This document shows, in pieces, positions 3,151-4,788 of a stretch of 32,000 nucleotides of DNA. The stretch spans positions 1,080,001 through 1,112,000 of the forward strand of contig NC_010628.1 of the NCBI RefSeq assembly GCF_000020025.1, read 5' to 3'. The notes below the pieces were generated by a model. That model was given only the letters and a program-made list of their open reading frames with translations. It made no database searches and had not been told where the DNA came from. How positions within the stretch are numbered: the stretch's first letter is position 1; every line of letters begins with the position of its first letter. The stretch comes from Nostoc punctiforme PCC 73102. Lineage in GTDB: Bacteria > Cyanobacteriota > Cyanobacteriia > Cyanobacteriales > Nostocaceae. The translations under genes were made by a program, and so were the position numbers.

Positions 3151-3158
3151 TTTCATTT

Positions 3159-3175
3159 TTGCCCGCGAGGGCCGG
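3159..3175 (+). promoter_or_regulatory. Ro-site-like hairpin in the rsr 5' leader, overlapping the Shine-Dalgarno sequence
   Basis: ttgcccGCGAgggccgg has the same architecture as the hairpin in the four tRNA-like RNAs: a 4-bp GC stem, a GNRA loop, a bulged C, then two more pairs. Its 3' strand runs into gggaga (3174-3179), 8 nt before the ATG at 3187. Confidence 0.5.
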
Positions 3176-3186
3176 GAGATGAAGCG

Positions 3187-4788
3187 ATGAATTACAATTT
3201 TTTCACTAAAAATAAGACTAAAACACCCCAAAATCAGCCTATCCCCGGACGAGAAGCAGAAATGGTTCAGGGACACTCCGGCGGCTGGATGTTTGATGCT
3301 GGCATTTGGAAAATGCTGCGTCGCTGTCTTTTGGTTGGCACAGCAAAAAGCACTTACTACGCTGGTAAACAAGAATTAACTGAGGATTTTGTGACAGTTG
3401 TAAGACTTGCTGTTGCCGAAAATCCCGGTCGTGTAGCGGAAGAAATTTTGTATGCTAGCGATGGACGCGCCATCAATAACAGTGCGCCTATCTTAGCTTT
3501 GGTGCTGCTGTCGATGGGTGAAACACCAGAAGCAAAACAGGCATTTGGTGAAATCTTCCCGCAAGTTGTTCGCACTGGTAGCCACTTCTACGAATGGCTG
3601 AACTACACCAAATCTCTGCGGGGATTTGGCAAAGTAGTGCGGGAAGCTGGTAAAACTTGGCTCTCAAGGGAAGATGTTAAGGGTTTAGCTTATCAACTGT
3701 TGAAATATCAACAGCGTCAAGGCTTCTCCCACCGAGATGCTTTGCGGTTGTTCCATGTCAAACCGCCTACAGAAAATCACCGTCAACTATTTGAGTGGGT
3801 AGTTAGAGGCTGGGAAGAATTGCCAACAGACATTCCCTCAGAGGCGTTAGCGCAGATTTGGTGGTACGAGTGGCTTAAACGGAATCCCACCCAAACCCAT
3901 GAAGCTATTTCTCAAGGACGCTTAACCCACGAAATGGCAGCACCTGTGGGCAAAATGGATAAGCAAGCTTGGCAGTTGCTATTTCAGGAAATGCCAATAA
4001 GTGCAATGTTACGTAACCTGGGTTCTTTAACTGAACTGGGTGTGTTACGAGCTGATGAAAACGCTAATTTGCTACGAGTGGAAGCAGTTCTTAATCGCAG
4101 AGAACATCTGCGTAAAGGTCGCATCCATCCGATTGATGTTTTGAAAGCACTCAAGACTTATGAATCTGGTGGAACATTAGGACGTAGTAAGAAAACTTGG
4201 AATCCAGTTCCTCGGATTGTGGACATTTTAGAAAAGGCAGTTGAACTGTCTTTTGATGTTGTGCAACCTACAGGTAAAGTGTTCATGCACGCCGTGGACA
4301 TTTCTGGTTCTATGGGTAGCTTGGTTGCAGATATGGGACTGACTTGCTGTGAAATTGCCACCACAATGGCACTAGTGACAGCAAAAGCAGAGAAAAACTA
4401 TATGATTCGCGGCTTTTCTACAGAATTTCGTGAATTAGGTATCAGTGCCAAAGATAGTTTTAGTTCTGCGGTTCGCAAAGCTAGCAATCAAAACTTCGGT
4501 GGAACGGATGCGTCTGTAGCTTACGACTGGATGATTAAGAATAAGTTCAAAGCAGATGTTGTCTGCTTTTGGACTGACTCGGAAAGCTGGGCTGGATATA
4601 AGCATCCAAGTCAAGCGCTGAAGGAGTACCGCAAAAAGGTAAATCCTAACGTCAAGGCGGTGTATGTCACTTTGACACCTTACCAAATTACTTTGGTAGA
4701 TCCTGAAGATTCGCTGTCTTGGGATTTGGCAGGGTTCGACCCAGGTACGCCTCGCATTATCCAGATGCTAGCTACGGGTGAATTGTAG
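3187..4788 (+). CDS. rsr: Ro60-related protein Rsr (TROVE domain + vWA domain)
   Basis: 533-aa ORF. TROVE-type N-terminal region: GGWMFDAGIWKMLRRCLLVGTAKSTYYAG, VVRTGSHFYEW, RGFGK, LKYQQRQGFSHRDALRLFH. C-terminal vWA fold with MIDAS DxSxS (VDISGSMGS). The length matches bacterial Rsr, and structured tRNA-like RNAs flank it. Confidence 0.9.
   Translation: MNYNFFTKNKTKTPQNQPIPGREAEMVQGHSGGWMFDAGIWKMLRRCLLVGTAKSTYYAGKQELTEDFVTVVRLAVAENPGRVAEEILYASDGRAINNSAPILALVLLSMGETPEAKQAFGEIFPQVVRTGSHFYEWLNYTKSLRGFGKVVREAGKTWLSREDVKGLAYQLLKYQQRQGFSHRDALRLFHVKPPTENHRQLFEWVVRGWEELPTDIPSEALAQIWWYEWLKRNPTQTHEAISQGRLTHEMAAPVGKMDKQAWQLLFQEMPISAMLRNLGSLTELGVLRADENANLLRVEAVLNRREHLRKGRIHPIDVLKALKTYESGGTLGRSKKTWNPVPRIVDILEKAVELSFDVVQPTGKVFMHAVDISGSMGSLVADMGLTCCEIATTMALVTAKAEKNYMIRGFSTEFRELGISAKDSFSSAVRKASNQNFGGTDASVAYDWMIKNKFKADVVCFWTDSESWAGYKHPSQALKEYRKKVNPNVKAVYVTLTPYQITLVDPEDSLSWDLAGFDPGTPRIIQMLATGEL

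Follow-up and report, generated by a model that had tools for sequence, protein, structure and literature searches.

A Ro-site-like hairpin abutting the ribosome-binding site of rsr in Nostoc and related leaders: a candidate translational operator of the Ro60 family

The Ro60 protein and its Y RNAs constitute an RNA-surveillance particle that is found from bacteria to humans, and the control of its protein-to-RNA ratio is little understood. Operators that act by mimicry of an RNA ligand are familiar from E. coli thrS (the tRNA-Thr anticodon arm), from the ribosomal-protein operators of L1, S8 and S15, and from the replicase hairpin of phage MS2 with its coat protein. Here we describe a short hairpin in the mRNA leader of rsr, the gene for the Ro60 orthologue Rsr, in a 32,000-nucleotide (nt) stretch of the Nostoc punctiforme PCC 73102 chromosome (NC_010628.1, positions 1,080,001 to 1,112,000, forward strand; hereafter the window, to which all positions below refer). 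As in the above operators, the hairpin is adjacent to the ribosome-binding site and resembles a weaker form of the main RNA target of the encoded protein, an arrangement in which competition between ligand and mRNA is expected; the rsr leader differs from them in that binding and repression are predictions, and in that the protein concerned is a Ro60 ring protein.

The bacterial Rsr recognition motif has been proposed to be GNCGAAN0-1G on the contact strand of the Ro-binding helix, and in the Yrn1 RNA of Deinococcus radiodurans Rsr protects G7, G8, C9, G11 and A12 (PMC4201824). In an alternative version the motif is CGAA alone (PMC12135203), and vertebrate Ro60 requires a bulged C and a conserved helix (PMC4726728). 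The Nostoc leader is like the Ro-binding helix of YrlA, YrlB and Yrn1 in having a GC-rich helix, a single bulged C, a G-(A/G) opposite U residues and a GGCCG contact strand. It differs from them in that a tetraloop closes it, that it lacks a tRNA-like body as well as a second helix and an internal loop, and that it lies in an mRNA leader fused to the Shine-Dalgarno sequence. Another related case is the phage phiLo, whose Yrl1 and Yrl2 are CGAA stem-bulge-stem RNAs in the non-coding region 5' of the Ro60 gene (PMC12135203). However, these lie 240-340 nt 5' of the start and were read by their authors as trans-acting Y-like RNAs; being too far upstream, they show only that a minimal hairpin can be bound, and set no precedent for binding at a ribosome-binding site. 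In the literature that we searched we found no description of Rsr or Ro60 autoregulation, or of a Ro site at the rsr ribosome-binding site, which agrees with the preliminary description of this locus, where such autoregulation had been proposed as new.

The leader hairpin occupies positions 3159-3175 of the forward strand and by direct reading is UUGCCC-GCGA-GGGC-C-GG, starting 8 nt past the discriminator base C3150 of the preceding Y-like RNA module (module 3). Its 4-base-pair (bp) stem joins G3161, C3162, C3163 and C3164 to G3169, G3170, G3171 and C3172 (3161-3164/3169-3172) and is capped by the GNRA loop GCGA (3165-3168). C3173 is bulged between G3161-C3172 and U3160-G3174, and two wobble pairs, U3159-G3175 and U3160-G3174 (3159-3160/3174-3175), close the base. 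The sequence thus agrees with the elements originally assigned to the hairpin, as well as with its placement outside any tRNA-like body, since it lies beyond module 3. Exact matches to TTGCC-N6-GGCCG number five in the window, one in each of the four modules described below (2704, 2903, 3074 and 4860) and one in the leader (3159), so that the earlier designation of the latter as a fifth copy of the module hairpin is accurate; when up to one mismatch is allowed, the expected number is 0.88, and none of the shuffles gave as many as 6. The 3' strand runs into the Shine-Dalgarno-like GGGAGA (3174-3179, forward strand), 7 nt before the rsr AUG at 3187, such that G3174 and G3175 are at the same time the partners of the wobble pairs. 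On the other side, the pyrimidine-rich 5' flank UUUCAUUUUU (3151-3160, forward strand) directly follows C3150 and pairs with the Shine-Dalgarno sequence and the spacer in the minimum free energy fold.

In the nearest-neighbour model the 4-bp core alone contributes -7.5 kcal/mol, and the register with the bulged C and two G-U pairs -5.3 kcal/mol. The register first proposed can therefore be read in the sequence, but the energy model prefers a 2-nt bulge and a 9-bp lower stem between the U-tract and the purines (3152-3160 with 3175-3183), at about -14 kcal/mol. Folding of the leader region is unexceptional when compared with shuffles (z = -1.8), and hence the reality of the hairpin rests on comparison with other loci. 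In Rfam no family covers 3151-3186, whether the gathering score or E <= 10 is applied as the cut-off, and the 36-nt interval between module 3 and the AUG contains neither a further domain nor the second helix or tRNA-like body of a Y RNA. An intrinsic terminator can be ruled out, as no U-tract follows the hairpin (GGGAGAUGAAG is found instead) and the terminator scan reports none.

The preliminary description had named orthologous leaders without the hairpin as a refutation; when such leaders were compared, the hairpin withstood this test. The hairpin is present, nearly unchanged, in all 80 Nostoc-group loci retrieved by means of the Rsr protein. It also occurs in Microcoleus, Aliterella, Planktothrix and Scytonema, and in about 70 more cyanobacterial metagenome loci, whose protein is 71-93% identical to the Rsr of Aliterella; a plasmid copy in Picosynechococcus reads UCCC-GUCA-GGGA-C-GG-AGUUGUC-AUG. 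Of 158 rsr loci, about 150 have the element; 148 are recovered by a strict finder, and most of the others are GGGAC-type variants. Across 85 distinct leaders 90% of the alignment cells are paired in a nine-pair structure, a level that none of 500 shuffles attained. The pair closing the loop is C-G in 49, U-A in 24 and U-G in 6, with A-U, G-C and G-U also seen, and the two central C-G pairs of the stem are nearly invariant. The loops vary freely, including GNRA, AAAY and UNRC tetraloops as well as triloops, as would be expected if the loop merely closes the open helix end of canonical Y RNAs. The extended 13-bp helix (3152-3183) was rejected as the conserved unit, because its outer four pairs are only 45-65% paired and include several uncompensated changes. 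The U-tract itself is conserved, but its pairing with the purines is equally good when slid by one column, and several cyanobacterial clades have only UU before the stem. In one metagenomic locus (L119) a leader-type hairpin (UUUUGCCU-UUUU-AGGC-C-GAGGAGAUAAC) is found at about 318-350, some 390 nt 5' of the rsr start at 708; it has apparently been displaced by an insertion and could represent a natural uncoupling mutant.

The position of the hairpin is set by the start codon. In 144 of 147 loci the spacing from its end to the AUG is 7-11 nt, whereas the last T-loop can be anywhere from 31 to 371 nt away. This fixed distance to the AUG, and not to the module, marks it as a feature of the translation start rather than as a trailer of module 3. 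Nucleotide diversity among 78 Nostoc loci is 0.076 in the hairpin as against 0.206 at the four-fold degenerate sites of rsr, and 0.00 in the Shine-Dalgarno GGGAGA, with the variation concentrated in the covarying closing pair, the loop and the three bases before the AUG. The leader hairpin is hence under purifying selection. Its stem variant coincides with that of the adjacent module in 24 of 133 cases, as compared to 29 +/- 3 expected; as the variants are uncorrelated, gene conversion from the adjacent module can be ruled out as the source of their likeness. Leaders and modules share the signature UUGYC...GRCYG, and when TTGYC-N5-7-GRCYGR was searched on both strands of 958 kb of loci together with the window, every match fell within a module or an rsr leader. 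As separate observations, the GAUGAA spacer is invariant in the 78 Nostoc loci (nucleotide diversity 0-0.03), beyond what a spacer between Shine-Dalgarno sequence and AUG usually needs, and is not kept outside the Nostoc group. An out-of-frame AUG at 3179-3181 opens the mini open reading frame (ORF) AUG AAG CGA UGA, the stop of which overlaps the rsr AUG (AUGA).

The gene that follows, rsr (3187-4788, forward strand, ATG at 3187-3189), encodes a protein with TROVE (PF05731) and vWA_Ro60 (PF25045) domains that is 92-99% identical to other Nostoc Rsr proteins (99% to that of Nostoc sp. LEGE 12447). Three Y-like RNA modules of tRNA topology stand in tandem 5' of it on the same strand: module 1 (2671-2803) and module 2 (2854-2983), identified as repeat families and both with the 3' end ACCA, and module 3 (3027-3150), identified by repeat families and fold, which has no encoded CCA and adjoins the leader. 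A fourth, recognized from the sequence, lies 3' of the gene (4837-4944, forward strand) and lacks the D-arm. In each the anticodon arm is swapped for a helix ending in UUGCCY-tetraloop-RGGC-C-GA, which is the layout of the Ro-binding helix of Y RNAs; it reads UUGCCU-GCAA-AGGC-C-GA in module 3 (3074-3090, forward strand) and UUGCCU-UUCG-GGGC-C-GA in module 4 (from 4860, forward strand). Modules 1 to 4 score 34.7, 35, 34.7 and 27 bits, respectively, with R1, a covariance model built from 129 different module hairpins. The only match to the Rfam family YrlA (RF02553) in the window falls on the junction of modules 2 and 3, at 27 bits against a gathering score of 69, from which it follows that the modules are circular permutations of the canonical YrlA. 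Chen et al. 2014 found few cyanobacterial YrlA RNAs, some of them with a longer 'acceptor stem'. Equivalent cyanobacterial modules at other loci (L136, L135, L105 and L258) match the tRNA family (RF00005) at 35-50 bits, above its gathering score; ARAGORN found no tRNA in the 32-kb window. The modules have an open acceptor stem and show compensatory changes between copies (GTGGTGGG/CTCCACTAC, GTGGCGGG/CTTCGCCAC and GTAGCGG/TTCGCTAC).

A consensus scan places a promoter-like TTGACA-17-TACATT at 2600-2628 (forward strand), 5' of module 1. The element TTGACA-N17-TACATT, followed by a AATAATACAAG-like sequence, is kept 5' of the first module in Nostoc, Scytonema (L085) and Microcoleus (L081), which suggests that the Y modules and rsr share a single precursor transcript. 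Since module 3 and the hairpin are too close together to accommodate a promoter, 2600-2628 is the likely start of such a precursor, running from the three modules through the leader into rsr; given also that the last module lacks CCA, co-transcription and a cut at about 3150/3151 can be inferred. In Microcoleus sp. FACHB-831 a gene for a CCA-adding enzyme (PolyA_pol and tRNA_NucTran2_2 domains; L081 1-696) lies directly 5' of the Y-module array, which fits a tRNA-like maturation of the 3' ends of the modules. The spacers between modules are short AT-rich tandem repeats, with AATTTTT units at 2997-3024 of the window and TTTTAGA/TTTTGGA repeats in oscillatorian and Scytonema loci (L081, L083 and L085).

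The same layout recurs at Ro genes far from the cyanobacteria. In six Streptomyces phages the Ro-like gene is preceded by (A/U)U-stem-loop-stem'-C-G(A/G)-AAGGA-AUG, with stems as different as GCCCA/UGGGC, GCCUU/AGGGC, AUCCU/AGGGU and GCCCU/AGGGC and with the element 5-13 nt before the start; in phage NootNoot the hairpin loop contains the stop codon with which the gene before it ends. These phage versions have AU or UU before the stem and no U-tract. In a viral sample from IMG/VR of 80 loci centred on Streptomyces-phage-like proteins, 35 of 70 distinct Ro-gene leaders contain a GC hairpin that is followed by C-G-A/G and terminates 2-22 nt from the start codon, as against 5.6 expected from the same loci. 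CGA or CGG follows the hairpin in 31 of the 44 leaders with any such hairpin but only in 4.9% of background hairpins. The stems are unrelated yet compensated (GCUCGAA/UUCGAGC, GUUCAG/CUGAAC, GUCCGA/UCGGAC and UCCCA/UGGGA), and in the 35 positive leaders the bulge is always C. A generic tabulation of maximal helices was used for the viral set only, because an alternative CCCG/CGGG pairing distorts it in the Nostoc leaders. Many phage leaders have the full motif, as in GGGC-C-GAAAGGA, where GNCGAAN0-1G is fused to the Shine-Dalgarno sequence. Two viral leader hairpins are detected even by the cyanobacterial module model R1 (E = 6e-4 and 8e-3), and among distant IMG/VR contigs (39-45% identity) roughly a quarter have the element. 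On a chromosomal-size replicon of the actinomycete Nonomuraea the leader reads AUCCGC/GCGGGU-C-GA-AACGAAAGGAAC-N6-AUG, again a full match to GNCGAAN0-1G, and is preceded by a YrlA (51 bits) as well as by a YrlB-like stem. In this locus (L260, about 340-461) AUCCGCUCCC is present as a direct repeat of two copies, the first of which can close the YrlB-like stem with GGGAGCGGGUCGAAG, and the second of which closes the leader hairpin before the rsr AUG. Mycobacteriophage cluster C leaders (L166, L248 and L250) have CGAAcGGAGG, that is CGAA abutting the Shine-Dalgarno sequence 10-20 nt before the start, and no hairpin, and Gordonia phage BearBQ (L171) has GCCGAC between Shine-Dalgarno sequence and AUG.

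These observations lead us to favour, with moderate confidence, the interpretation that the hairpin is an Rsr-binding translational operator in the rsr leader, for which the Y RNAs would be the competitors. It bears a partial likeness to the Y-RNA ligand of the very protein that the gene encodes, and it abuts, and is conserved at, the ribosome-binding site of that gene. In the mechanism that we envisage rsr would be transcribed jointly with the upstream tRNA-like Y modules, and processing of the RNase P and RNase Z type would free the modules and leave an rsr mRNA starting a few nt before the hairpin. Rsr free of Y RNA would then bind the leader hairpin; as the last two paired bases already form the start of the Shine-Dalgarno sequence, with the AUG 11 nt downstream, the bound protein might either block the 30S subunit or mark the mRNA for decay. 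The Y RNAs, offering stronger sites, would compete for Rsr and in this way couple its synthesis to the Y-RNA pool. An operator is the simplest reading because it covers at once the conservation of stem, bulge and G-R, the indifference to the loop, and the fixed fusion to the Shine-Dalgarno sequence across unrelated lineages. More tentatively, and with a little less confidence than in the Nostoc case, the bacterial and phage Ro60 orthologues may in general set their own level through an operator that mimics Y RNA and forms part of the ribosome-binding region, to which it is fused, the Y RNAs then serving as anti-repressors; in this case the Nostoc element would be a weakened member of an ancient, widespread class.

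Several features of the leaders weigh against an operator of this kind. The bulge is C in 94% and U in 4% of 434 module sites, whereas 149 leaders have either C (71%) or U (29%) at this position. The bulge is followed by GA in 94% of the module sites, as opposed to GG in 85% and GA in 14% of the leaders. The window leader, too, has a G after the G that follows the bulge, where the modules keep A; it reads GCCGGGAG, in which G-N-C-G is kept and AA has become GG, so that it matches neither GNCGAAN0-1G nor CGAA, and the single bulged pyrimidine on the contact strand (C3173) is retained. Accordingly R1 gives it only 10.4 bits (E = 0.74, local, positions 5-19), which is at the level of chance and far from the 27-35 bits of the modules, and the leader was rejected as a Ro site of the module type; a full Ro site would in addition have a second helix and an internal loop, both of which are missing here. 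Outside the cyanobacteria, the centring of the viral sample on Streptomyces-phage-like proteins means that many of its 35 positives share ancestry, and that they do not represent 35 independent events. The element is absent from mycobacteriophage Sparky, from Microbacterium phage Pumpernickel, from half of the IMG/VR leaders and from L164, a non-cyanobacterial locus (31% identical) that is the one locus without it among those scanned with the strict finder, and in the Thermus phage phiLo the hairpin proximal to the ribosome-binding site has no CGAA, the CGAA hairpins being the upstream ones noted above. Judged by its sequence, the Nostoc leader is a degenerate copy of the Ro site, in which GGCCG, the bulge and the UU partners are kept and the A residues and flanks are lost; some cyanobacterial leaders have the full motif (GACGAAGG, GCUGAAGG, ACCGAAAA and GACGAAAA). 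A minimal stem-bulge-stem RNA with CGAA binds the Ro60 of phiLo with a dissociation constant of 16.6 nM, and single substitutions in CGAA weaken this binding only 3-4.4-fold (PMC12135203). Such a modest loss suggests that binding could survive one or two changes in the site, although the phiLo protein is a distant homologue and serves as a guide only.

Of the alternatives, the one that survives best, though we consider it unlikely, is an mRNA structure that acts independently of Rsr, either protecting the 5' end of a 5'-monophosphate rsr mRNA from RNase E/J or setting the rate of initiation, with the likeness to the modules reflecting descent. The absence of CCA from module 3, whose end is 1-2 nt away from the 13-bp helix predicted at 3152-3183, fits this, since a cut of the RNase Z type would give a nearly flush 5' hairpin. 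So do the prediction that about 75% of the Shine-Dalgarno sequence is paired, the deviations of the leader from the module sites at the A and the bulge, and its low R1 score. However, a generic stabilizer needs no bulged pyrimidine, no UU/GR pairs and no near-invariant GCC/GGC stem bases, and the outer lower stem on which it would depend is not maintained (45-65% of cells paired, with uncompensated changes). Further, the hairpin tracks the AUG even where a long spacer separates it from the module, and descent leaves unexplained the C-G-A-A after the unrelated stems of the phages and Nonomuraea.

Rather less probable is that the hairpin is a minimal Y-like RNA or an Rsr loading site, released from the 5' untranslated region or acting in trans, that would be bound by Rsr with no effect on rsr translation. 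There are parallels for this: YrlB, an RNA bound by Rsr in Mycobacterium smegmatis, is encoded between YrlA and rsr and arises by processing of a single precursor (PMC4201824), the Ro60 protein of phiLo binds in vitro to the CGAA hairpins 5' of its gene (PMC12135203), and in Nonomuraea the YrlB-like stem is directly 5' of the leader hairpin. Nevertheless, a free small RNA would need neither the tight spacing to the AUG nor the fusion to the Shine-Dalgarno sequence, between hairpin and AUG there is neither a terminator nor a second processing signal, and the phiLo hairpins, being 240-340 nt upstream, are differently arranged.

We regard as very improbable a thermometer of the fourU type, in which the U-tract 3156-3160 would pair with GGGAG and melt upon heat stress. 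The leader does resemble fourU elements in having a U-run opposite the Shine-Dalgarno sequence in a hairpin, with UUUUU facing GGGAG in a G-U-rich pairing. Moreover, Ro60 orthologues are stress proteins, and erythromycin strongly induces the TROVE gene of cyanobacteria, which is also induced together with RtcB in coculture stress (PMC11423583, PMC6424891). On the other hand, the predicted opening of the Shine-Dalgarno sequence between 20 and 45 C is nearly flat, its unpaired probability rising from 0.21 to 0.26 in the window and from 0.23 to 0.28 in the mean of 117 leaders. The partition function gives 0.24 for the window at 37 C, 0.26 for the mean of the 117 leaders and 0.22 with shuffled 5' flanks. 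Thus, pairing is no tighter than with shuffled flanks, which attributes the occlusion to pyrimidine-rich composition and not to specific design. The conserved helix itself covers only G3174 and G3175 of the Shine-Dalgarno sequence. The preliminary description was therefore right that the 3' strand runs into GGGAGA, but its claim of sequestration was overstated, and specific sequestration is unsupported. It also tells against a thermometer that several clades have just UU before the stem and the phage versions no U-tract, the conserved part being the GC stem, the bulge and the G-R rather than the pairing of U with the Shine-Dalgarno sequence. Finally, the two non-functional origins that the preliminary description had kept open, a trailer of module 3 or a remnant of a decayed extra module, are suggested by the 16 nt in common with module hairpins and by the distance of 8 nt from module 3, but their probability is negligible, as the former is contradicted by the fixed AUG distance and variable module distance, and the latter by purifying selection, conservation across cyanobacterial orders and beyond, and evolution independent of the adjacent module.

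Among the neighbours of the rsr locus in the window, 5036-7036 on the reverse strand encodes a 666-amino acid protein with a weak AAA_16 match, and 9067-11391 on the forward strand a 774-amino acid STAND NTPase (NB-ARC and TPR). A scan of seven ORFs within the first 12 kb revealed no RtcR, RtcB or RtcA gene, in contrast to the rsr operon of Salmonella.

Regulation by a leader that mimics the ligand is a classical kind of mechanism; the family in which it is proposed here is new, and the leaders concerned span cyanobacteria, an actinomycete and phages. Irrespective of its function, the leader hairpin provides a short (about 20 nt), natural and readily mutated putative ligand for studies of RNA recognition by Ro60, for which the comparative data already indicate which parts tolerate change (the loop, the stem when compensated, and the bulge as C or U) and which do not (the UU, the GCC/GGC core and the G after the bulge). 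If it is true that a mimic of the Ro site on the rsr ribosome-binding site senses the protein, this would be the first feedback loop for the Ro60 family, and would account for the frequent neighbourhood of rsr and Y RNA genes. If the general class of operators holds as well, a fixed ratio of Ro60 to Y RNA would be maintained in cells and phages alike, from cyanobacteria to actinobacteria and actinophages.

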